A stretch of 64,000 bases of DNA, from contig QPMI01000117.1 in assembly GCA_004431415.1 (NCBI GenBank), positions 310,001 to 374,000 of the forward strand, in the 5' to 3' direction. This DNA is from Cyanophora paradoxa CCMP329. Lineage: Eukaryota > Plantae > Glaucophyta. The translations under genes were made by a program, and so were the position numbers. Shown here in pieces: positions 1-37,369 of this stretch; the stretch's first letter is position 1; each line of letters opens with the position of its first letter. The notes under the pieces were generated by a model, which was not told the origin of the DNA, did no database searches, and saw nothing but the letters and a program-made list of their open reading frames with translations.

Positions 1-137
1 TAATCCGCGAGGACGCGAGCGGTCGCGATGCTTAACAGGATATCGACGATCGCGAGGCCGCAGACGTGGAAGTGGACGCCGGTGCCGGGGCGGCCGAGGG
101 AGTCGGAGAGGTGGGAGAGGGAGGCTTGCATTTGCAT
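1..137 (-). CDS. Small viral membrane protein, 3' partial (MQMQASLSHLSDSLGRPGTGVHFHVCGLAIVDILLSIATARVLAD...)
   Basis: Hand-translated, not in the ORF track. The G-x-P-x-x-G-V-H...AIVD-x-L-L pattern resembles small membrane proteins of nucleocytoviruses (from memory). Confidence 0.6.
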   Translation of the reverse strand, partial: MQMQASLSHLSDSLGRPGTGVHFHVCGLAIVDILLSIATARVLAD

Positions 138-155
138 GTGATAAAGGAAGACAAT

Positions 156-614
156 TTAGACGTTGTACTTCTCCTGGTACGCCTTTTTGCGGATCCAGAG
201 AGCATTGGGATGTGTTGGGTCATAATTGATGCTATCCGTGTCTGGGATGTACCGGCCCTTTTTCTTGTTTGCCTCATCGCCATCCCAGTTGCTGATTGTC
301 ATACTCTCGGGATCCTCGCCATCCACGGTTATGATGAGAGGCTGATCCTTATTCCATCCTGGGTAATCGGGGATGGTGAGGCGGTATACATCCTCCCCAT
401 CCTTGGTTGTTCGGGAGTAGCGGATGACATGCGGGCGCGCCATTCCCTTGACACCACCGGGAAGGGTAGCCTCGTGTGTCGGGTTGTACCACTTGCCCTC
501 GAGGGGGTGCGCGGTCTTTCCGGTGTCGGAGCTGCTTCCCATGAGCAAGAAGGCAGCACCGACACCGACAACAAGGAGGAGGATAACGAGGATGAGGACA
601 GCAGAGCCGGCCAT
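156..614 (-). CDS. Hypothetical viral protein with N-terminal transmembrane anchor (152 aa)
   Basis: ATG-initiated intronless ORF with hydrophobic stretch AVLILVILLLVVGVGAAFLLM; co-oriented with neighbours. Confidence 0.75.
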   Translation of the reverse strand: MAGSAVLILVILLLVVGVGAAFLLMGSSSDTGKTAHPLEGKWYNPTHEATLPGGVKGMARPHVIRYSRTTKDGEDVYRLTIPDYPGWNKDQPLIITVDGEDPESMTISNWDGDEANKKKGRYIPDTDSINYDPTHPNALWIRKKAYQEKYNV

Positions 615-648
615 GGGTGATACAGAGGATGCAAGAAAAATCTAGGAC

Positions 649-1644
649 CTAAGACCTACCGATGGCAGTGTTCAGGGCATCAAATGCCAGCCGTAAATCG
701 TTTGCCTGTGCATCAGTTACGGCAGTTCCCATCACATAGCCGCCATTGCGATTATCCGACGGTCCGTGTATTTCTTCAGCTTCACCTGCAGTTCCTGTAG
801 CGCTTCCATGGGAGGTGCTTACTGTAACACTCCAATCCGAAGGAGTGGAATTTTGTGTACCAGTTACAAGAGTGCATTCCGACTTATTGCCATTTGCATA
901 GTAATAAACAGGTGTACCCAGAGCTCCCTGCGTCATAAGCATCAATCCGACAACCGGCACTGTTTGATTTGTGTTCATCTGTCCACCCCATCCGCAGCGG
1001 TTTGCCGTATTGTCGGTGAGAATGTAGTGGCGCGACCACTCCAACCCCCTGAATACGCCCATGAGTCGGGTTGCGGTTGGGGGCAAAGAGAGGGCAAATA
1101 CCCCAAAGTGGAGGTTCGATCCATTGGTAGTTATCGAAGAAAGTTTGACCCCTGTGTCAATAAACCCACCCGCAGTTACAGAGACCCGAGTCCCCGTGAT
1201 TCCTTGCAGTCTTCCATAGGTACAAGCTGTCGCACCAGTCCCCAAAGCTCTATTCGTGTCTGCAGTTGCTCCCAAAACCGTATTGATCGGACAGAGAGCA
1301 GTATTGATATCGGCACCACAGAAGGTATTCAACCGCCTGAGTGCACCCCATGTTCCGTTTGCAGAGTTAATGAGCGCGTTCACAAAAGCAATATGCGCAT
1401 CCTCCTCTGTGGCGTTCACTCCCGCCCCTCCGTTCGCCGCTATGGCCGCTTTCCAATCTGCAACTCTCTTGTTCGCAAATGATTGTGTTCCTTTCAAGGT
1501 CGACAGCCTAACGACCCCAGTGGTTGGGGCAGGGTACGTTGAGAACCCCAGCAGTTTCGAAAAGCGGAACTTGCCAGTCAACCCCATCATTTTCTGCAGG
1601 GATGACATGGTGATCTTTGTTGTCCCCACGGTCTGGACAGGCAT
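649..1644 (-). CDS. Putative virion fibre/structural protein (331 aa)
   Basis: Intronless, G/T/N-rich. N-terminus (VQTVGTTKITMSSLQKMMG..FRFSKL) resembles that of the adjacent fibre protein. Confidence 0.7.
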   Translation of the reverse strand: MPVQTVGTTKITMSSLQKMMGLTGKFRFSKLLGFSTYPAPTTGVVRLSTLKGTQSFANKRVADWKAAIAANGGAGVNATEEDAHIAFVNALINSANGTWGALRRLNTFCGADINTALCPINTVLGATADTNRALGTGATACTYGRLQGITGTRVSVTAGGFIDTGVKLSSITTNGSNLHFGVFALSLPPTATRLMGVFRGLEWSRHYILTDNTANRCGWGGQMNTNQTVPVVGLMLMTQGALGTPVYYYANGNKSECTLVTGTQNSTPSDWSVTVSTSHGSATGTAGEAEEIHGPSDNRNGGYVMGTAVTDAQANDLRLAFDALNTAIGRS

Positions 1645-1702
1645 GAGGTCATGAATCAGACAATCAAATTATTTTTACGGCAGACTGGACCATCGTACCG
1701 AG

Positions 1703-4188
1703 TCACCTCACAAAAACCATCACCGGGTTGCTGTTCTTGAAGGTTGGATGGAGTGCTCCTTGTGTGTTGAATCCATTTTCACCCCAAAAAATCCAGGTTG
1801 GATCGTGAACGCTCCCGGGTGATATCCATGGATCTTCAGCGTTTAAATTGCGGTGGTAAATATAGGCATTTGTGTTTCTGTCGGCGGTCCCCATGTTCTG
1901 AGATGACCCAGTCATTGTAACTACTTTTCCAGATTCAATCGGGAACGTAATCTGGGACAACGGGAAATAAAACCAGTACCCGGTTGTTGTCCAAAAAAGG
2001 ATCTCCGTCACAGCAGCCCCACCTTGGAGCGTATAATTTCTCCAATACCCACCTGTTGTCGGTATACTCCCCGTGCTACTATAAGTCCCATGCGAATAGG
2101 ATAACCCACTCCAAGCTACTTTCCCTGTATCGCCAGCGAACATCCCCCCCGTAGATGGCTGGGCCGCGAACGACATCCACCCCCCGTTGGCGGTTGCCAT
2201 GTCGCAGTAGATTCTGGCGATCGAACCGTCCGCGAGACGGAACTTGTAGGTTCCACTGGATGCGGACGTATTCACGCCTTTGAGCTGGACCGCATTTTGC
2301 GAATAGCTGACCATAAGAGGAGACTCCTGAGAAGCCCCCCCCTCTACGCCCCCCGTGACCGGCCTGACTACATAGGTATACGGGGTGACGAACAGCGCCG
2401 TGGTGTGTCCGTGAACGGGCTTGCAACATTATCTCCCACCTTTGTGCCGTTTCGGTAAACGTTGTAGGATTCAACTACCCCAGGGGTATGGGCGGTCCAG
2501 CTAACAGAGACATGAGGGGATGACGGCGATGGCTGAGATACAGAGATGGTTGTGCCGTACTTGTTCAGAAGCCACCCTCGAACCGCCTGAACATCGCCGT
2601 TTGAGAGGGGCTTGTCCCACACCATCAGTTCGCGGAGGTCAAGATTCGAGTGATTCGCGCCATCCGCGCCCCTGCTGATCCGCATCGTGGAGAATGTTCG
2701 GTTCGACATTGTGAACGTTCCCGTGTGGCTCTCACGGTCTTCGCCGTTCCAGATGTCAAAGGTGTTTGGCGCCAATCGCAATGCCACAACCTGCCAGGCC
2801 CCGGTGATCGGCCCGGGATCGGCATTGTCGTAAACCACCGACGATCCTACCATGTAGGCAACGTGGGTGGATGCGGTTGTTGTGCTCCGTCCAAAGCTGA
2901 TCGTGTCAGCCGGGCCTGTATTGGCAAAGTAGAACAGGCGCTCGGCATTCAGAGCGGCGCTGTGGTAGAAACGGATGACCATGATGGCCGTGAACCCCCC
3001 ACTGGTTCCGATGTCAAAGGTGCTGGATCCCAGGCTCAAGGAATTCCCGTAGGTCGTGGATGTGGATCCAGGGACGCCAAAACGCACGTAAGGGAACCGC
3101 TCATCTCTCTTGACCACCGGCAGGGTGCACCCCCCCAAGGAGGCCGCCGTGGCATTTATTGTCGTTCCCGTCACCCCGGTCCACGAACTGATGGTGGCAT
3201 CTGCGTCCGTCGATGTCAGCGTGTCAACCTGCAGCCACACCCGCGGGGCAAACATGGCGTTGTTCTCCGCGACGAGCGAGCGCCGGACTGTAAGGACATC
3301 GGTATCAGAGAGGGGCTTGTCGTAGATAATGAGCTCGCGGAGGTCCATATTTGAATTATTTGAGGGGCTTGCCGATGCACTGCCTCCTATGTACATATTC
3401 GCAAAATTCCGGTTCGGAAGTGTTGCAGGGAGGTTAGTTGTCGTGAATGTCATGGTGTCACTGGTCCATACTTCACATCTACCGGGCTTCCATCGAAGTG
3501 CAAAAATCTGCCATGAGCCCGTGATGGCAACGTCTACCCCAGACGTCGCATAGTACCCCGTATTCCCGTTAGTCATGGCATACAATACCGATGCCAAAGT
3601 ACCATTACGAGCAACAAGCCAGTTATCCGGCCCCCCTGCCGCACCGCTAATGAAATCGAACACTCTCTCGAAATTTTGGACCGGAGTGTTAAATTTAACA
3701 ACATAGAAGGCCGTACACCCCCCAGTCTCGGCCAACATGAAATCATAGCTTTTACCCCCCCCCGCCAGATTGACCCCGTTTCCATTGGACGTGCTTGTCG
3801 AGCTAGGGGTCGGATTCCCGAAACGAACATAGAAGACGCCGTCGTTCTTGATGATCCTGGGCATACCCGCCCCCCCCATGGCGTACGGCGTTCCGTCAAG
3901 TGCATTTGACCCAGGCCACGTGGTGATCGGAGCACCACTTGCAAGCGAACTGTCGATTGCGCTCGCCTTCAACCAGAACCGAGGCTGGACCCGCTGGTTG
4001 TTCGCGCTCACAGTCCCGAAGAACCTCTGCAGCCTGATGGTCTCCCCCCGCTTCGGGATGTTCGGGTTGTTCGCGGCGTACCCCCTTGGTGCATCGCGGT
4101 ACAGCTCGGACATGCGTAATTTTGCCCCCATCTTGTACTCTGCTGCGATATCCGAGAACCTCAGGCACCCCGTGGTCTGCAGCACCAT
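1703..4188 (-). pseudogene. Frameshifted virion fibre/adhesin: N-terminal anchor motif + 2 LamG/ConA-like repeats + FN3 + fibrinogen-like domain (~827 aa if repaired)
   Basis: ORF 2368..4188 has two internal repeats (PRFWLKA/PRVWLQV...ERVFDF/ERLFYF...DLRELII/DLRELMV). Removing 2 nt at ~2402-2408 completes an FN3 (SPFTDTTALFVTPYTYVVRPV..GVEG) and joins in frame to ORF 1703..2314, which carries YCDM...GGW. Confidence 0.75.
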
Positions 4189-4251
4189 CTCGGGCCTTTG
4201 TACACAGCGCACACAAAATTTCGCGGGCCATCGGGGTTTTGCAGATCTAAC

Positions 4252-5562
4252 TCAATCATCCGGGTCCAGCGCGGGGTCGTACATGGGGTGCCCTCTGGGG
4301 TAGCGGCGGGCCGTCGCCTGGTACTCGGAGACGCTCCGGGCCACGGGTCGCGCCAGCCACGCGTACTCCGGCTTGGGCCTCGGGGGCGGCGGGGGTGGGG
4401 GACCCGACGGGGGAAGGGCGGCGGTCGCTGCGGTCACCGGGGGGGCTGCGGGCCCTGCGGTCACTGCGGTCACTGCGGTTTCCGTCGGTTCCGCGGGGGC
4501 CCCCTTGCGCTTCTTCGCCCTCTCGGCCTTTCTCGCCTCCTTCTCGGCCTTGCGCTTGGTCTCGCGCTCGGCCTGTTTTGCGTCCCACTCCTTCTGTTTC
4601 CGCTCCCCGCGTTTTTTGATGGCCTCGGGTGCCGGCTTCCACCACTCAATCAGGTACTGGAGGCCGCGGATGATGCGGTTCGGGCTGGGGTTCTTGGGGT
4701 CGAAAAGGGACCCGTCCACGGCCGCCGCGATGGCATCCACGAGATCCTTGTCCGTCGGGGGCTGCGTCATCCAGAGAGTGTGCACGCGCTCTTTGAAGTT
4801 GCTCAGTGGCACGAGCGGCTTGTTCTCGATCACCGAAAGCCCGCTCAGGTCCCCATCAAACGGGGAGGGCTCATCAAAGATCGGCTGCTTGTTCGGGGGG
4901 CTATCAAAGAAGCGGCGCCAGTTCTCGCCGATGAACCAGGATTTGTGCCAGACAGTAATAATCTCGCGGGACCCATCCAGTAGCCTGGTCAGCGAAGAGC
5001 CCCCAAGCCGCCTGTTGATAACCTGGAAGAGCTTGCAGACCAGCGAGGCCCAACGGAAATCGTCGTGAGAGTGGTTGGTGCAGAGAGGTATGCCGAGGTC
5101 ACGGTGAACCCCGACCACCGCTTGCTGCTTGTTGACGTACTCGGGGATGTCCTTGTCGCGACAGAACCAGAACCGGCACTTCTCCTCCTTGGGGGCCTGG
5201 GGGGTCCTCTTTGCCTTCAGGGTGCAGGAGTGGCACAGCTTGCCACCCGCCCACTTCATTGCCTTGGATACCCGCTTGATCTCCTTCTTGCATTCCGGAT
5301 TCTCGCACACTTTCTTGACCTGCAGGGGTGTGCGAGGCTTTGGGGCCCAGTTGGGGTCAGCGGCTCTCTTCGCATCTCGCCAACACTTTCTGCAGGGCCC
5401 GTCGGGTTCGTTCTTGACCAGTTTGGGCTGGGTCGGACACGACTTGTTGGGACAGGGGAACCGATGAAACCTGTGTTTCTTGTGATCGTACTTTGGGCCG
5501 AACTTGTCCAGCTCATACTCGTCGAACCCCAGCGTGTCCGCCCGGCCCTTCTCGCACTCCAT
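4252..5562 (-). CDS. Cys-rich (multiple CxxC/CxxxxC) basic protein with Lys/Glu coiled coil and Pro-rich tail (436 aa)
   Basis: ATG ORF with CPNKSC, CRKC, CENPEC, CHSC and CRFWFC motifs. Function unknown, possibly nucleic-acid binding. Confidence 0.75.
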   Translation of the reverse strand: MECEKGRADTLGFDEYELDKFGPKYDHKKHRFHRFPCPNKSCPTQPKLVKNEPDGPCRKCWRDAKRAADPNWAPKPRTPLQVKKVCENPECKKEIKRVSKAMKWAGGKLCHSCTLKAKRTPQAPKEEKCRFWFCRDKDIPEYVNKQQAVVGVHRDLGIPLCTNHSHDDFRWASLVCKLFQVINRRLGGSSLTRLLDGSREIITVWHKSWFIGENWRRFFDSPPNKQPIFDEPSPFDGDLSGLSVIENKPLVPLSNFKERVHTLWMTQPPTDKDLVDAIAAAVDGSLFDPKNPSPNRIIRGLQYLIEWWKPAPEAIKKRGERKQKEWDAKQAERETKRKAEKEARKAERAKKRKGAPAEPTETAVTAVTAGPAAPPVTAATAALPPSGPPPPPPPRPKPEYAWLARPVARSVSEYQATARRYPRGHPMYDPALDPDD

Positions 5563-5614
5563 GGTTTGATGTATGGCAACATAAAGACAGGTTGATGTTT
5601 AACGCGCTCGAATA

Positions 5615-6224
5615 TCGACCAGGTGCGATACTCACAAGAGCCAAGTCCGGCCCCCGTGTCTATATAAGTCGATGGGGGGGCGGCACCAGCTTGGGAGAAC
5701 CGCCCCTTGTCGACACACGAGCAGCCCCCAGACAGCGGGGGTACGCGCTCGACGGACCAAGGTTCAGACCCCGGGGCAGCCCGCACTTCGACCAGGTGCG
5801 ATACTCACAAGAGCCAAGTCCGGCCCCCGTGTCTATATAAGTCGATGGGGGGGCGGCACCAGCTTGGGAGAACCGCCCCTTGTCGACACACGAGCAGCCC
5901 CCAGACAGCGGGGGTACGCGCTCGACGGACCAAGGTTCAGACCCCGGGGCAGCCCGCACTTCGACCAGGTGCGATACTCACAAGAGCCAAGTCCGGCCCC
6001 CGTGTCTATATAAGTCGATGGGGGGCGGCACCCGCTTGGGAGAACCGCCCCTTGTCGACACACGAGCAGCCCCCAGACAGCGGGGGTACGCGCTCGACGG
6101 ACCAAGGTTCAGACCCCGGGGCAGCCCGCACTTCGACCAGGTGCGATACTCACAAGAGCCAAGTCCGGCCCCCGTGTCTATATAAGTCGATGGGGGGCGG
6201 CACTGGCTTGGGAGAACCGCCCCT
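5615..6224. repeat. Tandem repeat, 173-bp unit, ~3.5 near-identical copies
   Basis: Units start TCGACCAGGTGCGATACTCACAAG at 5615, 5788, 5961 and 6133. Each contains CTATATAAG. Confidence 0.97.
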
Positions 6225-6287
6225 GCCCGCTACCCGAGCCCACGCAACACAGGCAAAACATCGCAGACAGGTAGGTCGGTATTCGAC

Positions 6288-7004
6288 TTACATATCGGTT
6301 TCATCATCATCGGGGTACATTTCGGGGTACACGTAGCGGATCACGCGGGACCCCGAGAGGGGGGCGGCGGCTCGCTTGAGGCCCTCGCTGATTGCCATAG
6401 AGTACCAACTGCACAGGTGCTCGTGGGATGTCGACGGGATGTTCTCGGCCTCGAGATGGAGAAACACGATGGGCTTCTTGAACTCGAGCGACAGGGCGGC
6501 CACACGAAACTGCTCTATTTCGTCAGGGCCCTTGTTGACCATGATTGCCACGATGCGGTCCGCCGTCTCCCGGAGGAGGGTGGGGCTGCACATGAAGCAC
6601 CGAGGACCGCGAAGGTAGGCGCGTTCGAAGAGGTGGCTTGGTCCAAACGAGGTCCCAGCCCGCACCAACACATCGTGGGCCATGTCTCTGTTTCTAAGGA
6701 AGCCGGTATCCTCTTTGTCGATGCACTTGCTGCACACCGCCTTGTCGTACTTGACGGTGACTGAGCGGCACTCGTGGCATTTGAAGCCGCCCATGCATAT
6801 CACACACGTACCCCCGCCGCACGGGGCGCAGAAGTCGAACCCGGGGACCGCCTTCTCATCGCACCCATTTCGACAGGGCTTGCATCTGCGACAGAAGCTG
6901 GTCTTGGGCGACTCGACGTTCCTCCCACAGCCCACTGCACACTTGGTTCGCTTGTTGGTCCCGGTAGGGGTGAAGAGCACGGCCATCTCCGCCTGGGACA
7001 GCAT
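6288..7004 (-). CDS. Cys-rich Zn-finger protein with possible degenerate endonuclease-like C-terminus
   Basis: First ATG at 7004 (the track start at 7079 is not ATG). Many CxxC pairs. C-terminal RIVAIMVN...E..RV...KPIVFLHL resembles giant-virus Zn-finger/endonuclease proteins without the acidic catalytic residues. Confidence 0.65.
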   Translation of the reverse strand: MLSQAEMAVLFTPTGTNKRTKCAVGCGRNVESPKTSFCRRCKPCRNGCDEKAVPGFDFCAPCGGGTCVICMGGFKCHECRSVTVKYDKAVCSKCIDKEDTGFLRNRDMAHDVLVRAGTSFGPSHLFERAYLRGPRCFMCSPTLLRETADRIVAIMVNKGPDEIEQFRVAALSLEFKKPIVFLHLEAENIPSTSHEHLCSWYSMAISEGLKRAAAPLSGSRVIRYVYPEMYPDDDETDM

Positions 7005-7190
7005 CTCTCTCGGATATCGCCGCTTACATGGTGCAGAGAAGGAAGTTAGGCGCCGTTTAACGCGCTCATATACCGACACGGGGCAAAGAACTCAAGACAC
7101 TGAGCCCCCCCCTGGGACTATACAGTTATAGGGGCGGTGATCATCGGCTTGAGAGTTTCGACACGTGCCAGAGTGTGAGATTATGCGCGC

Positions 7191-8006
7191 TCACATCGGG
7201 AACATCGGGCTGCTCGGGTTCCACCACCCTGCCCCCGCACCCCCGCCGTGGTTCCGCAGCGGCCCGAAAGCGATCACGTAGAGGTACGACAGGATCATCA
7301 GCGTCTCCAGCACGATATCGCGCGCGCCCCTCCGCCTCGCCATGTCCATCGCGGTCCTCGCCAGCTCGGCGCCCCGTGAGCGGGGCCGCACGGGCCCCCC
7401 GAAGCCCCGCGGGCCCCCAAGGCGTGTCCGCAGGAGCACACGGGGGCGCAGGCGGATGCTGCGGGGCTCCGCGGGCCTCGCGGGTCCGAGCTGCTCGGAT
7501 GCGGCGGGGTAGTCGGGGTACGACGCCTCGGAGCCCGTTTCAATCAAGGGGAGGGGCTGTGCGGTCACGAGGGTGTACGCCTCGAAAACCTCCACCAGAT
7601 CCCTGATGATGGATGGGCCCGTTGAACCGCGCGACACGTCAAATGCGAGCGAGGCGTCCAGGTGCGTTAACAGGACCTGCACCCCGTTGGGCCACGCAGG
7701 GTTGCCAAAGTCGACCCGCCCGGTCTCCGCTGCCCCCCGCACGAAACCACCGGGGTCCGACAGTCCCTTGGATTGCATGTAAGCGAGCACCTCGGCCGCC
7801 CCGAAAACCATGAGCCGCGAGAAGGCGTCCAGCACCTGCCCCTCGTTGTTCCTTGCCACCTCCCTCTCGGCCTCCTCTACGGTACCAAACCGCGCGATGC
7901 CCCTGTTGTAGGCCGCCATCGCCTGCGTGTACCTCAATGCATCTCCAAAGTCGTCCACGGAGTACATGTCCTGGAAATCAGGGAAGCCTTGGTTGCGCAA
8001 GGACAT
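7191..8006 (-). CDS. Hypothetical protein with C-terminal GNAT acetyltransferase-like motif
   Basis: VRPRSRGAELARTAMDMARRRGARDIVLET...LY...FG matches the GNAT motif A/B layout. Start at 8006 chosen; 8060 is an alternative. Confidence 0.6.
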   Translation of the reverse strand: MSLRNQGFPDFQDMYSVDDFGDALRYTQAMAAYNRGIARFGTVEEAEREVARNNEGQVLDAFSRLMVFGAAEVLAYMQSKGLSDPGGFVRGAAETGRVDFGNPAWPNGVQVLLTHLDASLAFDVSRGSTGPSIIRDLVEVFEAYTLVTAQPLPLIETGSEASYPDYPAASEQLGPARPAEPRSIRLRPRVLLRTRLGGPRGFGGPVRPRSRGAELARTAMDMARRRGARDIVLETLMILSYLYVIAFGPLRNHGGGAGAGWWNPSSPMFPM

Positions 8007-8126
8007 CCTCTCTTTCACCCAGCCTCTACATTTTCTCTCAGCCGCCCAATTACAGTCCATCTGTAACCACCCGCCAGCCCCGCGTTCAGCACCCGCCGAA
8101 CCTTCTCCCCGCATAGAGTACCAAAA

Positions 8127-8552
8127 ATGGAGCCCTTCCGGTCCGCCGGCGACGTCCATTGCCGCTGCGAGGAGTGCGGGGGCGCCCCTCTCGGCCAGCG
8201 CTGCCCCGGGCCCGAACGCCACTGCAGCATGTGCCTCGACGAGGGCGGCGGCCACGAGCCCCTGGACGCTTTGGGAATCCCGACCGGCCCCGAGTTCCGC
8301 ACGTGCGACTGCGCCCTCTGCGACCAGCGGGGCGTCGGCTACTACCCCGACTGCTGCATCGAGGACGGCAGCGACCCCGAGGCCGTCGTCGAGTGCCCCG
8401 AGTGCATGGTTTGCGAGAAAGGAACCTGGACGCACCGCTGCGTCTGCGATGTCTGCAGCGGGTACTGCAAGGACAGCGCGGGAGGCCCGTGCAGGGTCTG
8501 CGTGTACGGGAACGGATCGCACGTGGACTGGTGCGACGGCCCGTGCGGGTAG
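8127..8552 (+). CDS. Very Cys-rich small metal-binding protein (141 aa)
   Basis: A-rich context CCAAAAATGG and >20 Cys in CxC/CxxC motifs. Confidence 0.7.
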   Translation: MEPFRSAGDVHCRCEECGGAPLGQRCPGPERHCSMCLDEGGGHEPLDALGIPTGPEFRTCDCALCDQRGVGYYPDCCIEDGSDPEAVVECPECMVCEKGTWTHRCVCDVCSGYCKDSAGGPCRVCVYGNGSHVDWCDGPCG

Positions 8553-8687
8553 GTAGGGGGTCCCTTGGCGTGTGTCGAGTATTTGTGCGAGTCTGAGTCA
8601 TTTCAACAAACCCGGGGTTCGACAAAACCTAGTTCTGCCAGACCAAGGTTTCCTAATCCTTCTCGGCGTTCGAGTTGCCAAGATATA

Positions 8688-8987
8688 TTATTTCAGCAAC
8701 CCCTTCAGCTCTTGCATGCCATCCAGGAACGCGCGGATGTCCTGTCTCATCCTTGCTTGGACCGCCAGCCTTTGCATGGGCTCCAGCGGCGCCATCGTGG
8801 CCCGCACGGCCCCTAGCACCATCTGCGCATTGCTGTCCATGACCTCCGTGAGCACGAGCGCCTCCATCCCGAAGAGGGGGTTCGTCCGGGCCCGCGCGGC
8901 CACCCGGGGCATCGTGTGGTATCGGTACTCCCAGTGGGCATCCAAAAACTCGTAGAGGAAGAGGTCGGGGCGTGGGTTCAGGCTCAT
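8688..8987 (-). CDS. Hypothetical helical protein (99 aa)
   Basis: ATG ORF MSLNPRPDLFLYEFL..., divergent from the NblA-like gene with a 46-bp gap. Confidence 0.65.
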   Translation of the reverse strand: MSLNPRPDLFLYEFLDAHWEYRYHTMPRVAARARTNPLFGMEALVLTEVMDSNAQMVLGAVRATMAPLEPMQRLAVQARMRQDIRAFLDGMQELKGLLK

Positions 8988-9033
8988 GGTTGCAGACGGG
9001 GCTAGATTTTTGCGCACCCCTTAAAACAGAGAG

Positions 9034-9300
9034 ATGCCCTTCGTCTCCCCCCTCGCCGTCCGCTGTTCCGCGGGATCCCCCGATACCCCCCCACCCCCCG
9101 GCGGCGGCTACGACCCCGCGCGGCTCTCGATGCACCAGGAGGTGCACCTGCGCCAGTTCACCTTTGACGTTGCGCGCATGGACCGGCCCGCGCTCGAGTC
9201 CCTGGCCGTGAAACTCGCCGAGAACCTCTACAAATCCGCCAACATCGCGCAGGCCCTCCACGAGCGGGGCGGCAACTTCTGGCGCGAGGGGACGGACTGA
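9034..9300 (+). CDS. nblA: NblA-like phycobilisome degradation adaptor with putative plastid transit peptide (88 aa)
   Basis: LSMHQEVHLRQFTFDVARMDRPALESLAVKLAENLYKSANIAQAL aligns without gaps to the NblA consensus as I recall it (LSLEQxFxxRxFxxQVxxMSxxQAxxxLVKLYEQM...YQEL). N-terminal MPFVSP...VRC-S resembles Phe-type transit peptides. Confidence 0.65.
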   Translation: MPFVSPLAVRCSAGSPDTPPPPGGGYDPARLSMHQEVHLRQFTFDVARMDRPALESLAVKLAENLYKSANIAQALHERGGNFWREGTD

Positions 9301-9336
9301 GCTGCCCTACCCCCACCCTTTTGCTTTTCGTGGATC

Positions 9337-9898
9337 TCAGCAAGCCGCTATCATTTCATTCATAGGCTCGAGAAACTGCGAGGGGCTGAAGGGGGTATCG
9401 GGGACGTAGCTGGGGTAGAAGGGGAGAGGGGTAGAGACGCAAAAGGCCGGGGGGGTAGGTGCCGGCGTCGGAGGCAGGAAGGGGGTACAGGGGATAGGAG
9501 AGGGGGCGGGGGCGGGAGCGGGGGCGGCCTCCGGGGCGGGCTCCGGGTCCTCGTCCACGAGCGTCTTCCTCACCCGCACCGGCACAAAGGGGACGCGCGG
9601 GGCCTCAAGGGCCTGGCGCTGGCCCGTCCGCGGATCGTAGAGGTACCACGCCACGACGCTCGGGGCCAGCTCCTCCGCGCGGACCTCCCAGGGCGCCACC
9701 GCCTCGTAGGCCACGCACTCGCCGCGGGGGCCCCAGAGGGTCCACATGTACCACTTGTACTCGACCGGCGCAGGAGAGTGGGCGCGGGCCTGAGTTAAAG
9801 TTAGGGGATGGATGGGCAACAGGAGGCGTAGGGGCGCGCACCATATCCATGAGGCCGCTCTCAAAGTCCTCGAAGGCGACGGAAGCGGCAGAGGCCAT
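9337..9898 (-). CDS. Spliced viral hypothetical protein (exons 9898-9842, 9789-9337); Trp-rich core, Pro-rich tail
   Basis: A 52-nt intron at 9841-9790 (GTGCGC...CTAAC...TCAG) joins MASAASVAFEDFESGLMDM in frame to ARAHSPAPVEYKWYMWTLW... Confidence 0.75.
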
Positions 9899-9985
9899 TT
9901 GAAGATGCCTGGAACGAATTCGGGCTGCTTGGAGAATGTGAGGCTGAATGCGATCCGACTCGGGTGTCTATGGGATCCTAGGGTA

Positions 9986-10306
9986 TTAGGAGCCTCGGCC
10001 CGAGGAGCCTAGGAGCCACGGCCCGAGGCGCCTAGGAGCCCGAAAAAAAACAATCATTGGTCCGTCACCGGGGCGTGAGTCACATGTGGTAAGTGCGGCA
10101 CGTGGGTTGCGTGAGTCACGTACGGTAAGCGCGTCACGTGCGTCACCCGAGTCCCGTGCGTCACGCGGGTCAGCTGAGTCACGTGCGGGGGGGGTACGTG
10201 GCCGCCTAGGCAATAATGGGCCGAAATTTCGCCGATAATTGTTTTTTTTCAGGCTCCTAGGCTCCTCGGGCGGTGGCTCCTAGCATCCTCGGCCCGAGGC
10301 TCCTAA
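9986..10306. promoter_or_regulatory. 69-bp inverted repeat (9986-10054 / 10238-10306) enclosing an AP-1/G-box cluster; bidirectional enhancer or origin-like element
   Basis: Arms match 63/69. Spacer has TGAGTCA at 10076, 10112 and 10175, and CACGTG at 10099, 10135 and 10180. Lies between divergent ATGs at 9898 and 10416. Confidence 0.8.
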
Positions 10307-10415
10307 GACCCCCCGCGGACCACAAAACCGGCGCCGGCCCCCAGTCTGGCTCACTCTTGCCTGCCCCAAATTTACGCCGCGCCGCTTCCGAGTCGCTTCC
10401 CTTTGCCGTATAACC

Positions 10416-11304
10416 ATGTCGGACTCTGTCTCCCCCGCCGCCGCCTCCCGCGTCATTGATATCATCGACCTCACCGAGTGCCCCTCCGACGACGAGAAGG
10501 GGCTCGGGCCTGCCATGGCCCTCCCCCGCTCCCGCTCTACCCCCGCGGCGGCCTCCTCTTCCGCCTCTGCCTCCTCTGCCTCCTCTGCCTCCCTTATCCC
10601 CTCCGGCCCCGGAATCGATCCGGAGTTTCCCTTCGAGAAGGAGCCGCCCTGCGACATGAAGGAGAACGCCGAGGTCCGCCGTTTCCCTCTGTCTCACGCA
10701 AGCCCCTCTGCCTCTATCTCACGCGAGCCCTTACGCAGCTCTACATGGCCTGGCTCAAGTTCCGCTGCCCCCACCGGACCGCGACGATCGAAGCGGTCGC
10801 CAAGGAGCTCGGCGAGATGACCGAGGAGGCGCGGCAGGCCACCTTTGCCTTCGTGGACGGGAGGCGCCCCGCCCTTATCGAGGAGGTCGAGGCCATCGTG
10901 ACCGCCGCCGAGGCCGCCTCGATCGTCGTCAAGATGGAGAAGGAGCTCAGCCCGCCCGCTTCGCCCCCCGCCCCCACCGCTGACCCTGAGGTGAGCCCCT
11001 TTGCCTCTACCCTTGCGCCCCCCTCTGAGCCCGTACCCCGTAGATCGAGTCGCCCGAGCCCGAGCCCGAGTCGGAGCCCGAGTCGGAGAACTCGGAGCCC
11101 GAGTCGGAGGACGAGAAGGCGGCAAAGAAGGTGGCCAGGAAGGCGGCCAAGGCGGGCAAGAAGGCGCTCAAGGAGTCGTCGCCCACCAAGAGCGCGCTCA
11201 AGGGCCGGTGGTCGCAGAAGCGGAAGGCCTCCGTCACCTTCCCCGCCGGCACCCCCGACTCGCTCTCCGTAGAGGGCAGCCGCCTCCGCCGCCGCCGCCT
11301 GTAG
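10416..11304 (+). CDS. Spliced viral nuclear regulator-like protein, 256 aa (exons 10416-10673, 10739-10990, 11044-11304)
   Basis: Two phase-0 GT-AG introns restore one frame. Contains SIM-like VIDIIDLTECPSDDE, SUMO consensus VKME, acidic EPES repeats and a basic K/R tail. Confidence 0.8.
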
Positions 11305-11952
11305 ATGTATCGAATTCCTGTCTCGGCCACTTATGCGTCAGTGTTTCTCCGATTTTTTTGCAATGGTAAAGTGCCCCAAATCGTCCAATTCACTCTCTCT
11401 CTCGCCTTTGGAGTCCCTTTCCAACACGAGATCGCTTCGGTCGCAATGGGACACACATCTTCATTTCGTCCCAGGTCAAAGATCGGCAGGTGGTTTGCGA
11501 GAAAGCTTTACACGCCACGGATCATACAGAACCAGATCCTTGAACAAACAATGGCAACCTGCGCAATCACCAGGACTTGGGCACCGATTCGCGACCTCAT
11601 AAACATCATCGACTTTGCGCGCATTGGTCCGGTCTGCTTGGACAAGTGGATGCTCTCCGCCATTTCATGTGGCTGTTCGGACATTGTTATGCATCTCTGT
11701 CCGCTGGGCACACGTGCGTCCGGCCTTGACCTGGAGAATGCCTTTGTTTCTCGCACATCCGATCTACAACGCAAGATCACAGAGAGCGAGATCGCCGGAG
11801 AGATGGGTCTCACAGTGTCTTACAGAGAGGATTCATTTCTGGCGGATTGCGTGGAAATGAGGGTGATTGCTGCATGCCTACAGTTATCACAACAGACAGA
11901 GCAGATATGCCGGACCATGTGCCCAAGAGTTAGCCAGTATATTTTCACGTGA
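11305..11952 (+). CDS. Hypothetical viral protein (true start uncertain)
   Basis: Intronless 215-aa ORF of lower GC filling the gap between genes. Confidence 0.55.
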   Translation: MYRIPVSATYASVFLRFFCNGKVPQIVQFTLSLAFGVPFQHEIASVAMGHTSSFRPRSKIGRWFARKLYTPRIIQNQILEQTMATCAITRTWAPIRDLINIIDFARIGPVCLDKWMLSAISCGCSDIVMHLCPLGTRASGLDLENAFVSRTSDLQRKITESEIAGEMGLTVSYREDSFLADCVEMRVIAACLQLSQQTEQICRTMCPRVSQYIFT

Positions 11953-12185
11953 TTCTTTTCGAATCTCTACAGACACCCTCCCTCCGAGCCCTCTGTAGCC
12001 TCCGAGGGGCTCCAGCGGGGCCGCACGCACGCCGCTGACACCGCTGGGTACGACGGACGGGGTTGTAATCGCGGAAGACCGCCACGACCCGCCAAGTCCA
12101 AAAAGGGGCCCGCCCGGATTCGAGGCGGGTGCAAAGTGGGACCCGCGCGCCACCCGGGGCCCGCGTTCACCGAGGCGGGAACAGA

Positions 12186-12941
12186 ATGCCCGCCGAGATC
12201 GCAGCGGCCTTCTCGGCACTGCGCGTGGCATCGCAGGTTCTCCGCGCAGCCCGCCTGGCCGCCCCAGTCATGTCGCTGCTGCTGCGTGCCCTGTCGGGGG
12301 TCCCGGACGAGGCGAAGATCGTGCGCGGGATCAAGGACGCGGACCCGGCCCTCGTCGCCCCCCAGCTCCGCTGCATCCCGCGCCGGCTCCAGCTCCGGGT
12401 CGCGCGGGCCCTCTGCGGCGACCTCGTGTCCTGCGCGTGCATCCCGAGCGAGCACAGGCCGCACCTGCCCGACCTGTCGCTCCTGTCGCTGGGGCTCGCC
12501 GTGGCCGCCGAGACCCGCCTGCCCCGCGCGAGGGCCGTGGTGGACGCGCTGATCGACCTGGGCTACAGGGCGGGCGCGGACTCGGGCGCCAACCTGGCCG
12601 CCGCGGTCCTCCTGGGCTGGCGGGGCGTGGTGCTGCGGTTGGTGGACGAGTGCGGCGTGCCGGTCAACGGGACCCCCGCCGAGTTCGCGACGGGCGTGCA
12701 GACCGTGCGCATCCTCTCGGGTCTGCGGACGACGCGCGCGGCCGACGTGCCCGCAGTGCTGGACTGCGTGGAGGCCCTCGTGTACGGGCGCGGGATGCGG
12801 CTGTGGCTGCCGGAGCTCGAGGGGAACCTGCGCGCCACCACCGACGAGGGCACCCGCGCGCGCCTCTCCCTGATCGCGCGGTCCCCCGAGCTCGTGTACG
12901 GCCCCCGCGATGTCGCATCCGCCCCGACTGAATGGCAGTGA
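12186..12941 (+). CDS. Hypothetical helical protein with weak ankyrin-like segments
   Basis: ATG at 12186, GC3-rich coding pattern, segment VVDALIDLGY...LAAAVLLGWRGVVLRLVDECGVPVN. Confidence 0.65.
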   Translation: MPAEIAAAFSALRVASQVLRAARLAAPVMSLLLRALSGVPDEAKIVRGIKDADPALVAPQLRCIPRRLQLRVARALCGDLVSCACIPSEHRPHLPDLSLLSLGLAVAAETRLPRARAVVDALIDLGYRAGADSGANLAAAVLLGWRGVVLRLVDECGVPVNGTPAEFATGVQTVRILSGLRTTRAADVPAVLDCVEALVYGRGMRLWLPELEGNLRATTDEGTRARLSLIARSPELVYGPRDVASAPTEWQ

Positions 12942-12993
12942 GAGGCGCGTTCCCCTTGTACACTAAGGAATCTGCACCATTTCACGCAAGCCA

Positions 12994-13287
12994 ATGCCTC
13001 CCATCCATGCCCCGCGCCCACTGACGGACGACGAGCGCCGGCACTTGCTTGAGCGCCTGGATCTGCTGGTTACGAGTGTCTGGAACGCAGCGGCCCCGAT
13101 CGCATGGGCCAAGGATACGGTGGGCAGGAGCGTCCACCAGAACCTACAGTACGTCTACTCGAACCTCTCACAGGAGATACTGCCCCTGATCGATGCTATG
13201 CTAGGCACCTGGTATGCCGAGCGGCTCCCTATCTCCCTGATGTCAGCCCGGGTGGATGCTCGGGGCGGCGACTTTAGCGACCTGTGA
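12994..13287 (+). CDS. Hypothetical viral protein (97 aa)
   Basis: ATG ORF with globular composition; last ORF before the GC-rich terminal repeats. Confidence 0.6.
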   Translation: MPPIHAPRPLTDDERRHLLERLDLLVTSVWNAAAPIAWAKDTVGRSVHQNLQYVYSNLSQEILPLIDAMLGTWYAERLPISLMSARVDARGGDFSDL

Positions 13288-13731
13288 TTGCTCCTCTGTC
13301 TGAATACAAATTGCTCGGGCTCTAGAAGGGCTCCGAGGCTCTAGAAGGCCTCGCATACACCCCGCTGACACCGCTGGGTACGACGGACGGGGTTGTAAGC
13401 GCGGAAACCCCCAGAAACCCCCAGAAGGGCCGTACCCCGGCCCCGCTGACGAGAGGGGCCCCCTCCCGGCCCGGGTACGCAGAAGGGCCGCCCCCCGGCC
13501 CTCTTCCGCACAAGGGCCCGCCCCCGGCCCCGCTGACGAGAGGGACCCTTGCCCCCCCTCTCCCCCCCTCCGCCCCCCCGCGGGCCGGCCCTCGTCCCCG
13601 CGCCCCCCCCGCAACCCCCGCAACCCTCTGGGTCCCCGCGGGCCCCATTCGCCGATGCGGTCCCCCGGGCCCATCGCCTCCAATGGGATTTGGGGGGTAG
13701 CGAGAGGGCGGCGGGGGGGTACGCAAAGTGA

Positions 13732-18253
<4,522 letters not shown>

Positions 18254-18995: not shown

Positions 18996-20690
18996 CTACA
19001 GCTGCCCGCAGTCCTCGATGGTGATCACCTGCGTCGTCTGCCCGCCCCCCGTCCACAGCGCGGGGCGCGGGCCTCGATCTTCTTCACCTGAAGCGCGCGG
19101 GGGCGCGGCTTAGCGGATGGGGTATCGCGGCGAGGGCGTAGGGGTAGGGGGGTACCACGTCCATGCCCTCCACGACCCGGTCGAAGACGACGGGCTTCCT
19201 CTCGGGGCTGCCGGGGGTACGGGGTGTTGGAGAAGTACGAGAATGCGCGCGGGACCGGAGGGGGCGCACTGGGGCTTCGCCTTGAATGCGATGAAGAACT
19301 GAAAGGATTGGGGGGGGGGGGAGGGGAGGGGGGAGGGGGGGGGGAGGGGGAGGGGGGGGGGGGTTCCCGGACCGGAAGAGCGTACCTGAGGGCGTACCCG
19401 AAGAGTGTACCCGGCTGCTCGTGCTTCAGCTTGAAGTTCTCGCTGCTGGAGGGGTACAGCGTTTCAGGGGGTGCTCCGCTGTACCCCCTGTACCCCTGTA
19501 TCGCTTCAGCCCGCGCAGCTGGCGCCAGCATCTGCTCCACGAGGGCTACGAGCTCCAGCCTGGGGGGTACTCCGTCACCTTCCGCCGGCCGCGCCTCGGG
19601 GGGTACGGCGACGCACCGGACAGCGGCGCCGAGGGGCGACGCGCCGCTCGCCGTGCAGCGCGCAAAGTCGGCCCGGGCTGCGGGGCGCGGGTGGGAATGG
19701 AGCGCGGTCCCCCGGGGACGGATCGATCCGCGTACCCATCTGGCCCCTCCTGGTGAGGATCGCTAGGATCGCGGCCTGTGAGGGGTACCCGTCAGTCCCG
19801 AGGCCGCGCGGGCGGGACGGGTACGCGCGCCTGCGCTTCCGCGGTTTCTCTGCGGGCGGGCGGCGGGGCGTCGAGGGCCGGCCGGCGGGCAGGAGGGAGG
19901 GGGGTAGACAAAAATAACAGTGCGCCGGCTCCTGGCGCGCGAAGGCGGCGAGGAGGAGCGGAGCGGAGTGGCGCCGTCGGCGTCGGCGGCGCGCGGGTCG
20001 GCCCCCGCGTCGAGCAGCGCCCCCAAGAGCTCCGGCGCGTCCCCTGCAAACGAAGTCGGGGCGGAGCGGGGCGGGCGGGGCGGGGCGGGGCGGGGCAGGG
20101 CGGACTGTGGCAGGCAAGGCGGAGCTGATGCTTCCCGCCCTCGTCGGCCGCCGCCGCCTCCGCCCGCGCGTTCGAGTACGCGCAGTGGTGCCTGCGCCGC
20201 GCCGCCGCCGCCGCCGAGCGCCGAACAGCGCGCGCCGGTCCGGGAGGGGCGGCGCGGCCGCTCACAGCGCGAGGCATCCGTAGCGGTCGGCGGCGGTGTT
20301 GAGGGCCGCCGCGTGGCGCTCGGCGACGAGCTCCGCCTCCTCCCGAAGCTCCCGCCACGCGCAGACCGCCGCGTGCAGCGGGAGGCCCGCCTCCTGCGCA
20401 GGAGGGCCCTCCGTGTAAGCCCACGTCTCTTTGCCTGGCCGGCGACCCGAGCAGAGTGCGCCGCGCGGAGCCTCCAGGTAGGTGCGGGTTCGCCCTTAGC
20501 TAAGCGCGGCCGGTGCGGCCTTACGACGAACGAGGCCGCGTGTAGGAGAGGACGAGATGCGGCTGCGGAGCGCGGGGGCGCGCGGCGGGCCGGCGCACCG
20601 CGTCTTCGTCTCTCGGGAGGATCTGGCCTTCCGCGCGCGCCCGAACCGCCCGCAGCGCCCTTTCGTACGTCAGGTCGGCGCTCGCCATCC
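18996..20690 (-). pseudogene. Chimeric/decayed gene: ankyrin-repeat fragment followed by a degenerate copy of the cyclophilin 3' exons
   Basis: ELLGALLDAGADPRAADADGATPL (ankyrin), then ENFKLKHEQPGTL, VVFDRVVEGMDVV and VKKIEA. Strongly similar to 48682-49160 but lacks SMANAG and has an 11-nt frameshifting insertion. Confidence 0.65.
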
Positions 20691-21229: not shown

Positions 21230-24200
21230 ATGACCGTCTCCGGCCGCGGCGGCAGCGCCGGCCTTGATCTGCAGCTGGATCCCAGCGGGGGAGCCGCCCA
21301 TACGTCCATAACCGCGAACGCGCGAGCCGCTACCGCCAGCGCTACAGCTAGCAGCTTGAGCTTCAACATCGCTGCACCAGCTTATGCGAATGGAGGAGGT
21401 GCCGGCCGCGGGCCCGTCCGCGTCGCGTCTTCGAAGGATCCGTGCGCGTACGCGTACGGCGCGGCCGCCGGCGCGGGGGCGGGCGCGCACGGCGCGGGCG
21501 TCAGGTGCGAGTCAAGTGATTTAGATGCGGATGGCGGCTTCGCGCGCCCCTCTGGTGGGCGCTGTCACGCGCGGGGCGATGAAGACCTGCCGCCTGTGCG
21601 CATTCTCGCCATCGGTTCGTAAGCGCCTGGCGCCAGCACGCTGCGCGCGCCGCGCGCCGCCTCTAGATCTTGACTTGAGTCAACATTGCAGACGGCGGAG
21701 GAAGTGCGTGTCCCATCCACAGATTATTCACGCCTTGTATTTGCAGAGCCCGCGCTTGCGGCCGGGCATTCTTCTGACAAGCGTCTTTAAATTTAATTTG
21801 CGCAGCCAGGGGCATCATCCCCGCCAAACTCATAGAGTGCGCTTTCGCAGCTTGCCTAAATCAAAGCGCTGCTAATATAACGTCGACGTCCCTTTTCCAG
21901 GTACATCTCACGAAAGACTGGCCGAGTGCGCATACCTGCGCCCATTGATTTAATTAAAAATTATAATTATTCATCAATTGCACTTATATATAGTGCATGC
22001 TAATCGCTCCGGTCCGCAGCCCATACACGAGCTCTTCGACTACGTCGCGGGTATGCGCATGCCTCTTCTTGTATCGACCTGCGCCTTCTTATATCGACCT
22101 TAAGCTTCCATCGACTTTCTCTGCACCTGCAGCTGACGCCCCGGCGCCGGCAGGTTCGAGCATCGGCGGCATCCTCGCGTGCGGCACCTTCGGAGTGAGG
22201 GACGGGCGGCCCCTCATGGACTCGTCCAACCTCGCGAGCGCCCCCGCATCTCCGCCCCCTCAAAAGCTCACGCCCCCTCAGGTCCAGGAGCTGACGGACG
22301 CCATGCAGAGGATCTTCTCCAAGTCCCCCTTCAGCAGGGCCAAGGCAGCCGTGGTTGGGAGCCGCGGGCCTTTCTTGAGCCCCGTGCGTGTGGCTCTAGA
22401 GAGCAGATCCATGGCCAGAGGGCAGCAGCTCACTCGAGGCTTTTGAACCGCTCAGGAACCTTTCGAGAAGCTGCTGGCCGAGCTCGGCAGCGGCGCGCGC
22501 CTCACCGATGTGGCGGCCTTTGTCCTCGTGCGCATTTCTGCCTTCAATTAAAACATATAAAAACATATATAGTAAACATAAAGCGTTCGAGTAAACATAT
22601 ATGCGCAGGTCACCGCCTTCGACATTGAGGAGCGATCCCCTCTCGTCTTCTCGACGGTGCCTCTGCTTTTTCAGAATTCGTACCGCCGCCGCGCTCTTGC
22701 TGAATTCGAAGCCCTGCAGGCCCAAGCGCTCCGCAGCCCCGCGCACAACGTACGACTATGCGACATCGCGTTGGTCTGCAATTTTTATTTATAGCAGATC
22801 TCGCGCACGTCCTCGGCCCCTCTCAATATTAATGCCCCTCGCGCGATTGCACCAGGCCACGTCCGCCGCCCCACTGCTCTTCCCGCCCGCCCGCCTCCAC
22901 ATCCCCGGAATCTACACCCACAAGGATTACGGCACCTTCATCGACGGATGGCTCGTCTCCCTTCCGTTCACAGTTGACATCGCTGCCTGCGCATGTCTCA
23001 CTAAGAAAGGGTTTGCAGGCTGGTTCAGAACAACCCCTCCCTGCTGGCGTACGCAGAAGCGGCGCGGGTTTTCCCAGGTCAGCATGCGCAGATCTAGAGT
23101 CGACGCAGATGCATATGCTTACGTGTACAAGCTCTAGTTCTAGATCACGTTACGCCGCGGGCTGACCTGCCTCTCGGCAGGGCGGAAAGTTCTCCTGCTC
23201 AACCTCGGCACAGGCGACGCCGACGAGCCCCTCTCTTGGGCCGAGACTCGCCAGTGGGGCGCCCTCCGGTGAAGCGCCCGCACCTTTTTTCTGTCGCGAA
23301 ACGCGCTCACATTTCCCGCGCGTGTGCAGCTGGATCGAGCCGCTGTTTCAGTGCATGCTTGGCGGTGCGCCGCGCATTTGCGCATTTCTCAGCTTTCTCA
23401 GCCGCACTCGCAAGCTAAGCCGACGCCGCCACGATCACGACCAGGCGCGAACGAGAGCGCGGCGCTCGCGGCGCGGCAGCTGCTGGGCGACGACTTCCTC
23501 CGCCTCTCCCCGCGCGTCCCCCCGGAAATCGACAGGCGCGCCGGCTGCGGCCGCTAGATTTGGATTAGCGCACTTCTTCTCTCTTACCTGTTCCTTGCAA
23601 CGCATGATATGCAGGATGGCGGACGCGTCGCCAGCGAACCTGACATCGCTCGCGCGCGCCGTTGAAACCCAGGTCATGATCATTCTCGGCCTACCCTCTC
23701 GTGCTCCCGTCCCTCCTGACCATGAGCCGCTCCGGCGTCTCCGTCCGCAGCTGCTGACGGGCGACTCGCTGGCGCGACTCGACGCCTTCGTCGACCGCCT
23801 CGTGGCGGCGTCGGACCACCCGGGGGCCCGCCGCGGCCGGCCCCACGCCGGGCTCCTCCCGCGCGACTTCGCCGTGCAGCCGCGCCGGCCGGCGATGGCG
23901 GCGCAGCCCGTGGCGACCTTGTCGGACGCTGGCGTGTATGGCACCTCGGTCCTGTCCTTCGGTCCGCTCGGCCGAGTCTTAGCTTACGCTTTCTTAATTC
24001 TGACGAGAGCGTTTTCAGAGGACATCTGCTTCTGGGCGAGGCTTCCCAAGTCGGCCGAGGCCGGCTCCAAGCGGCCGCGCGCGGGCACGCAACGGGCCTC
24101 TTCCATCGTTTCCATGGCCCAGAGAACGGGATCCGGAATCCTTCGGTACGCTCCTCGAGTCTTCTGAAGTGTATCTTACGTTTACTATCAAATTCTTGTG

Positions 24201-31850: not shown

Positions 31851-32126
31851 CTTTGCTAGTACCAACCGATTATGTATCCCAAATCATTGAATCTTGCAAA
31901 CCTTAATGATTACTCTTTCTCGACTTCGCACGCCTTTTTCTATGGCCAGCCTCGGCCGCCACTCCTCGCCCCTCTTTCCCACGCCCCCTCCCCCCCTCCC
32001 CCTCTCCTCCCCGCCCCCTCTCCCCTGCCCCCGCCCCCTTCCCCTCCCCTCCCCCCGCCCCCCCGCCCCCTTCGCCCCTCCCCTTGCTCCCCCTTCGGTC
32101 GAAAATTCAAGCGAAAATTTGGAGAC

Positions 32127-37316: not shown

Positions 37317-37369
37317 CCTACTCCCGGAGTCCTGGACAGGCTGAGCCTGTCCAGGACTCCGGGAGTAGG
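37317..37369. repeat. Perfect 26-bp-arm palindrome
   Basis: CCTACTCCCGGAGTCCTGGACAGGCT-G-AGCCTGTCCAGGACTCCGGGAGTAGG. Confidence 0.9.

Follow-up and report, generated by a model that had tools for sequence, protein, structure and literature searches.

The first 13,751 nucleotides of a 64,000-nucleotide window from the glaucophyte Cyanophora paradoxa CCMP329 (assembly GCA_004431415.1, contig QPMI01000117.1, positions 310,001 to 374,000 of the forward strand; coordinates below are those of the window) make up the right-hand portion of an element that is foreign and likely viral. Among its genes is a short open reading frame (ORF) on the plus strand, 9034-9300, whose product of 88 amino acids (aa) combines a predicted cyanelle transit peptide (aa 1 to ∼26) with a helix-loop-helix core (aa 31 to 83) that resembles NblA. 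We lean toward reading the element as an integrated double-stranded DNA virus whose 9034-9300 product would be a plastid-imported, NblA-like tag for phycobilisome breakdown. More tentatively, we propose that a glaucophyte DNA virus, still circulating as suggested by a metagenomic relative (P0104), encodes a transit-peptide NblA that would dismantle the phycobilisomes of the plastid, the first in a virus of eukaryotes. The viral NblA strategy itself is already known, and so are elements of this kind in C. paradoxa, to which the present one adds a locus; what is new is an NblA-like gene with a predicted plastid address and a relative in the wild.

An NblA-like protein encoded by the element

Compared with the Pfam NblA family (PF04485), the 9034-9300 product scored 16.2 bits (E 0.014). 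With a profile built from 11 cyanobacterial and phage NblAs, it was the only match among the 972 reading frames of the window (E 0.004), its 13.2 bits contrasting with at most 3.6 bits for 2,000 shuffled versions and 3.9 bits for the reversed sequence. The core aligns without gaps to the NblA of a Nostoc PCC 7120 plasmid (14/45 identical residues); while similarity is concentrated in aa 27 to 54, the gap-free spacing reaches as far as the helix 2 end, the terminal aromatic residue included. In the Atlas, NblA accounts for all three of the closest clusters (0.80-0.82; lead level), and NblA structure 1ojh is one of the two rows that phmmer returned from the PDB at E≤10 (E 0.8). Similarly, a single-sequence fold model gave a helix hairpin (helices 33-47 and 51-85; pLDDT 74-85 over aa 31 to 70), in line with the helix-loop-helix core of about 60 aa that typifies NblA, and in a fold search of 48,161 chains, NblA structures ranked 1, 4, and 7 with the highest identities (21-25%).

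Several results weigh against this assignment. The Pfam score lies below the gathering cutoff of 25, which is why we call the protein NblA-like and do not file it as a PF04485 member; active cyanophage NblAs likewise score low on Pfam (bioRxiv 494369). The fold search gave Z scores of merely 4.1 to 4.8 for NblA, the top value of 4.8 being tied with unrelated coiled coils, and Foldseek returned no match at E≤0.001 from the PDB and BFVD. In addition, helix 2 is weakly conserved, with hidden Markov model alignments spanning helix 1 only, and a profile of LMM01-type sequences alone gave 5.0 bits as compared with 4.2 for the best shuffle; this profile, made from 78 close sequences, was rejected as too narrow. 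On balance, we consider it very likely that the ORF is homologous to NblA.

A word search for relatives confirmed 0 of 1 candidate; tblastn gave two rows in phages, both chance matches, and none in plasmids; and pattern scans of IMG/VR and the JGI metagenomes yielded no confirmed relative. Two MAFFT alignments (A1 and A2) were left unused, helix 2 being misaligned in them. On a Chroococcidiopsis plasmid (L003:142-465), we observed nblA directly followed by a chlorophyll a/b-binding (Hli-type) gene.

A candidate plastid leader and a metagenomic relative

The NblA-like ORF begins with MPFV and is Pro-rich at aa 16 to 22. In 49 of 77 cyanelle transit peptides, Phe occurs among the first 10 residues; the class has a Val-rich start and a Pro-rich stretch at 10 to 20, and its length has a median of 63 and a range of 11 to 110 (PMC4510345). 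The leader shares the early Phe, the Val-rich start, and the Pro at 10 to 20. By our own count from Table 1 of that paper, 14/77 cyanelle proteins start with M-x(1-2)-FV, a pattern seen in 3/266 first-ATG frames of the window and in 1/60 of those in the element, namely, the NblA-like gene itself. At no more than 26 aa, the leader is within the range of the class but far under the cyanelle median, a point against import. We consider it probable that the leader targets the plastid.

A search of 1.84 billion representatives with the NblA-like ORF returned two matches, one real (P0104) and one spurious (P0105, a repetitive fish protein, which was dropped). P0104 is a 90-aa protein from a 6,064-bp metagenomic contig in ENA and is 51% identical to the ORF (E 4e-13). 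Their cores agree in 31/50 positions, and P0104 likewise begins with MPFV..RCS but has a different linker. On the NblA profile, P0104 reached 16.5 bits, with no more than 7.9 for 2,000 shuffles; on Pfam NblA, it scored 14.1 bits, again below the cutoff of 25. A profile made from just the two cores (ORF plus P0104) placed 10 of the 11 NblAs above all 971 other frames of the window, with a best E of 1.3e-5. A point on the other side is that P0104 may be cellular.

Predicted action on phycobilisomes

NblA links phycocyanin to the Clp protease (bioRxiv 494369; PMC12695635), and viral NblA, known from cyanophages, reduces host photosynthesis (PMC12695635). In the mechanism that we propose, the NblA-like gene would be transcribed in the nucleus by the host machinery during infection, as inferred from the spliceosomal-type introns and the TATA and AP-1/G-box motifs of the element, and its product would enter the cyanelle by the Phe-dependent route. 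There, by analogy with cyanobacterial and cyanophage NblA, it would dimerize, bind phycocyanin, and hand it to the Clp protease, and the ensuing breakdown of phycobilisomes would free nitrogen for virus production and lower light capture. We consider it somewhat more likely than not that the protein acts on phycobilisomes.

With the NblAs of cyanophages (Ma-LMM01, PaV-LD, and marine T7-like phages), the protein shares the small helix-loop-helix architecture and the helix 1 pattern L-x3-Q-x3-L-R (PMC12695635; bioRxiv 494369), as well as a likely status as viral cargo and a phycobilisome-bearing host. Unlike these, it lies in a nucleus-integrated element of a eukaryote and has a predicted transit peptide, and only 7-8/45 residues are identical to the LMM01 and PaV-LD types versus 14/45 to the Nostoc plasmid protein. 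Red algal Ycf18 and nuclear NblA homologues also belong to a primary-plastid alga, and the nuclear kind would likewise need import (bioRxiv 494369). Unlike those red algal host genes, the Cyanophora ORF is intronless, comes from a glaucophyte, and sits within a foreign element.

The protein could instead be an NblA-derived adaptor with a different job, either a decoy shielding phycobilisomes or a means of sending other plastid proteins to Clp. A kept helix 1 next to a diverged helix 2, with similarity concentrated in aa 27 to 54, would suit such a role, as would the report that the red algal plastid homologue ycf18 does not drive bleaching (bioRxiv 494369) and the finding that cyanophage NblA also triggers cleavage of nonantenna proteins (PMC12695635). 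We nonetheless judge it unlikely, given that the core keeps the helix 2 spacing and terminal aromatic residue without a gap and that divergent cyanophage NblAs are active (bioRxiv 494369).

A defined element end and a plastid filler

An earlier note on this DNA had described an abrupt switch from compact ORFans to host genes at about 13.7 kb. This is borne out by palindromes, a boundary test independent of gene calling: the observed/expected ratio is 0.95 in 1-13,745 versus 1.39 in 13,745-64,000 for 4-mers (z 30) and 0.93 versus 1.94 for 6-mers (z 25), and in 500-bp bins, the step comes between those that start at 13,251 and 13,751. The 4- and 6-mer palindromes in which the host DNA (13750-64000) is rich include TATA, ATAT, AATT, GTAC, TTAA, CTAG, and TGCA. 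The contrast persists when coding and noncoding DNA are taken separately, with 0.90 for element coding and 1.30 (z 2.0) for element noncoding DNA as opposed to 1.76 for a long host exon and 2.94 for the host flank. GC content alone was a poor marker of the boundary, and a Markov-model boundary scan was uninformative. Transposon-like stretches on the host side also lack palindrome enrichment, which weakens the step as an argument for a virus; the signal is one of foreign DNA in general and not of viruses in particular.

Three DNA runs (X1, X2, and X9) and one presumed-RNA run were compared with 13630-16300. Among the contigs listed, 4, 5, and 5, respectively, track the window to 13,750/13,751 and then continue into other flanks, and some of the flank letters beyond the element end are identical between the 2019 and 2024 runs. 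The element therefore has a defined end that is present at several loci. In addition, all 16 DNA runs listed, which carry one species label, contain 0.95 to 0.97 of the words of 6300-15500, bearing in mind that one of them may be the source itself and that 15 share a year and may stem from a single campaign. No RNA run was among the holders listed. Four presumed-RNA runs contain 0.06 of these words, which is no evidence either way on expression, and one of the four gave no match on 13630-16300.

While the boundary is real, the end lies at 13,750/13,751 and not at 13,730 as first given, and 105 bp of plastid DNA intervene before the host sequence. In the three DNA runs, this piece (13,751-13,855) exceeds the host flank in depth by factors of 12, 165, and 36, respectively, and continues as AT-rich DNA on both sides. 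It encodes 34 RpoC2 residues, identical to C. paradoxa in 34/34, to C. biloba in 32/34, and to three red-algal-type proteins in 25-26/34 positions; this identity with C. paradoxa marks the host as a glaucophyte bearing phycobilisomes. The intron-rich, GC-rich flank agrees with the C. paradoxa genome, in which host genes have 9.2 introns each (PMC6704402).

A high-copy plastid piece at the joint raises the possibility of an assembly chimera, in which a free or contaminating genome was joined to the host contig through a plastid repeat. Two results count on that side and against a genuine junction: the single-copy host contig overlaps the plastid piece by merely 28 to 30 letters, and none of the contigs listed spans the virus-plastid joint by 31 letters on each side. 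However, the host contig begins those 28 to 30 letters inside the plastid piece in 3/3 DNA runs, the only left-hand loose end at 13,751, among those listed, is the plastid itself, each of the three DNA runs shows the element end attached to further flanks, and the element is present in the 16 DNA runs of one species label. Even with a false joint, the element would remain in the organism's DNA. We regard a chimera as very improbable and the virus-plastid joint as assembled as likely genuine. Plastid DNA as filler at a joint points to capture during break repair; here, a broken chromosome would have taken up the element end, plastid DNA filling the gap. The palindrome step and the contigs into other flanks support the recent integration suggested earlier, as that of a foreign element with a defined multilocus end, and 1-13,751 is almost certainly the end of such an integrated element.

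Gene content of the element

A set of 16 genes covers 78% of 1-13,750. Of the 16 ORFs scanned, three had a Pfam match at E≤0.1 and one was above the curated cutoff (LamG), in keeping with the compact ORFans noted before; a single ORF (fibrinogen-like) passed an NCBIfam cutoff. The features are as follows.

1-13751: right-hand part of the foreign, likely viral element, the left part of which extends beyond the window (palindrome step and multiflank end)
156-614, minus strand: 152-aa ORFan with a hydrophobic anchor at the N terminus; no family match above cutoff
649-1644, minus strand: 331-aa ORF, likely a fiber-type protein; N terminus weakly like that of the 606-aa ORF (E 0.46); no family
1703-4188, minus strand: fiber/adhesin-like gene with two LamG domains, an FN3-like stretch, and a fibrinogen-like domain (PF13385, NF040941, reading frames)
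4252-5562, minus strand: 436-aa Cys-rich, basic ORFan; no relatives
5615-6224: tandem array of 3.5 units of 173 bp, 99% alike, with TATATAA
6288-7004, minus strand: 238-aa Cys-rich ORFan
7191-8159, minus strand: ORFan of at most 322 aa; the start is uncertain and may be 8060
8127-8552, plus strand: 141-aa Cys-rich ORFan
8688-8987, minus strand: 99-aa ORFan; it and the NblA-like gene stand head-to-head at a distance of 46 bp
9034-9300, plus strand: 88-aa NblA-like protein with predicted cyanelle transit peptide
9337-9898, minus strand: 169-aa gene; a predicted 52-nt intron (9790-9841; GT..CTAAC..CAG) joins the frames
9977-10311: inverted arms of 80 bp (89%) around a 173-bp core, between divergent spliced genes
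10416-11304, plus strand: 256-aa gene, acidic and then with a basic tail; predicted introns 10674-10738 and 10991-11043; no family
11305-11952, plus strand: 215-aa ORFan
12186-12941, plus strand: 251-aa ORFan
12994-13287, plus strand: 97-aa ORFan
13331-13751: GC-rich terminal region with an 86-bp module, 29-bp tandem units, and then the multilocus end
13751-13855, plus strand: plastid rpoC2 fragment of 105 bp (nuclear plastid insert) at the junction

The fiber-like gene scored 30.5 bits with both PF13385 and NF040941, above cutoff in each case; its FN3 label was assigned by eye. ORFs 2368-4188 and 1703-2314 seem to belong to a single gene that a frameshift near 2,390 has interrupted; apart from this, most ORFs are intact, as the earlier note had it. 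The fold model of the 331-aa ORF was unusable (pLDDT 35), and the best Atlas score of the 436-aa ORF was 0.79, a low recognition. No tRNA genes were found, and weak family rows other than NblA, such as FliL, GrpE, HisG, and head scaffolding, were rejected as far below cutoff.

Three GT-AG introns of 52 to 65 nt are predicted in the element, in line with the spliceosomal introns proposed earlier; unspliced, the 256-aa frame holds three stops. Calling the spliced genes regulators is not supported, their exons having no family match. The postulated AP-1/G-box (bZIP-type) motifs do exist: the 173-bp core between the inverted arms contains three TGAGTCA and three CACGTG, and 9977-10311 is predicted to be a bidirectional enhancer or origin. 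The left part of the 173-bp array (5595-5700) is homologous to 7055-7150, both lying upstream of minus-strand Cys-rich genes, and these modules likely represent a duplicated promoter. Similarly, the terminal 86-bp module (13331-13413) recurs at 12000-12084 (85% alike). The ORFs flanked by these two homologous intergenic pairs are unrelated, which looks like cassette-wise gene addition downstream of promoter duplicates.

Probable viral origin and candidate lineages

Fiber-like genes with LamG, fibrinogen-like, and FN3-like domains, together with dense ORFans, make a viral origin of the element likely. On the opposing side, no viral hallmark gene was recognized in its 13.75-kb part: scans of the 16 ORFs with Pfam, PHROGs, and NCBIfam revealed no capsid, polymerase, ATPase, terminase, or integrase in the window. 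By lineage, there was no double-jelly-roll capsid, A32 ATPase, PolB, or VLTF3; no HK97 capsid, terminase, portal, or triplex in these scans, which were run without mirusvirus-specific profiles; and, in the terminal 13.75 kb, nothing of the polinton-like set (capsid, penton, ATPase, pPolB/helicase, and integrase). Also opposing a virus, no relative of four element ORFs or of the NblA-like ORF was found in IMG/VR, nor any of two ORFs in GenBank phages.

If viral, the element derives with somewhat better prospects from a larger virus (nucleocytovirus or mirusvirus) than from a polinton-like one, which is a minority prospect, with a small chance left for other lineages. That 13.75 kb contain no recognized core gene and that the glaucophyte row of Table S6 (PMC12220804) has a LamG count of zero both lean toward a larger virus; the precise multilocus end leans toward one that uses an integrase. 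We agree with the earlier note that a nucleocytovirus and a mirusvirus-like origin cannot be told apart within the window. Its "nucleocytovirus-like structural genes" are not supported, because LamG, fibrinogen-like, and FN3-like domains are no lineage markers, LamG fibers occurring also in polinton-like viruses (PMC12220804), and neither is its "large" virus, for which the sole basis is that core genes are missing from the 13.75 kb.

Mirusviruses have a nuclear phase and spliceosomal introns, both of which are predicted here as well; unlike in mirusviruses, no HK97 capsid, terminase, or portal was seen in the element. A mirusvirus in Cyanophora is not borne out by the accessible part of the host-range preprint bioRxiv 2024.01.18.576163, which mentions neither Cyanophora nor glaucophytes. 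Giant endogenous viral elements have been reported in C. paradoxa (PMC12344493); they share with ours the species and clustered virus-like nuclear genes, their coordinates not being stated there. Polinton-like viruses catalogued in this species (PMC12220804) share multilocus integration and fiber genes. Unlike them, the element has no core genes in 13.75 kb and does have PF13385, for which our own column reading of their glaucophyte row in Table S6 gives 0 among 156 elements, 85 of them with rve integrase.

A polinton-like virus (14 to 40 kb, integrase-driven) whose capsid, ATPase, polymerase, and integrase genes would lie just left of the window, with the NblA-like gene as cargo, is all in all unlikely. 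It would account for the precise end at several loci, a multiflank end being compatible with the terminal inverted repeats and target-site duplications of such viruses, and for fiber-like genes at the left edge of the window, and it could draw on the catalogued C. paradoxa viruses and on the LamG fibers of their cryptophyte counterparts (PMC12220804). Yet 13.75 kb from the end pass without a recognized core gene, and PF13385, present here, is found in 0/156 glaucophyte elements by our Table S6 reading. Moreover, Polintons end AG..CT, which the end of this element does not resemble. Host-sized introns of 52 to 65 nt, duplicated upstream modules, and scans devoid of viral hallmark genes could instead indicate a large nonviral cargo transposon with collected ORFans, the NblA-like gene then being an algal nuclear gene carried along, of which red algae provide nuclear homologues (bioRxiv 494369). 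This we consider quite unlikely, as the element is mostly intronless and 78% coding compared with 9.2 introns per host gene (PMC6704402), has fiber-like domains, and shows no close host paralogue of the NblA-like ORF among the 1.84 billion representatives, though this collection includes proteins of the window (EukProt).

Host flank beyond the junction

An intron-rich host gene (13887-16020, plus strand) starts about 30 bp past the plastid piece, and the insertion may have truncated it at the 5′ side; it resembles a GT4 glycosyltransferase gene, the one exon scanned having no Pfam match. Further host features are a many-intron ABC transporter-like gene at 21900-31900 (plus strand; labeled by eye from translations) and a Nab2-type zinc-finger gene at 51800-53440 (plus strand; PF14608, E 2e-17). 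Inverted arms of 69 bp lie 2.25 kb apart at 35841-38232, in what looks like a nested nonautonomous element. The long ORFs at 39694-43400, lacking palindrome enrichment and a Pfam match, resemble the 3′ part of a long interspersed nuclear element, and transposon-like ORFs with a weak PHD finger occupy 55400-58500 (minus strand). In addition, an RCC1-repeat gene segment is duplicated at 59000-59770 and 63025-63790 (∼4,020 bp apart, 87 to 97% identity), and a 105-bp repeat is dispersed at 19148-19252 and 48842-48946 (75% alike).

Implications for glaucophytes and their viruses

Our literature search, with thin coverage of subscription papers and bioRxiv supplements (among them the 871-sequence NblA list of 494369), revealed no virus of eukaryotes with an NblA. 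This includes the accessible portions of PMC11477984, PMC4810238, and PMC10120064 (the last without supplements), the main text and two supplements of PMC12220804, from which NblA/PF04485 is absent, and the section of PMC12344493 on the giant elements of C. paradoxa, which does not discuss NblA.

The palindrome enrichment of the host DNA is a usable signature to locate foreign inserts in the Cyanophora genome. If the element is viral as we propose, it would open an initial view of one genome end in a larger virus of glaucophytes, and its NblA-like gene would provide a handle on how glaucophytes dismantle phycobilisomes. The idea is directly testable, since the host is cultured and sequenced and complementation of nblA mutants is an established assay. 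If true, a eukaryotic algal virus could bleach the chloroplast of its host as cyanophages bleach cyanobacteria, and the cyanophage bleaching strategy would reach across the endosymbiotic boundary.

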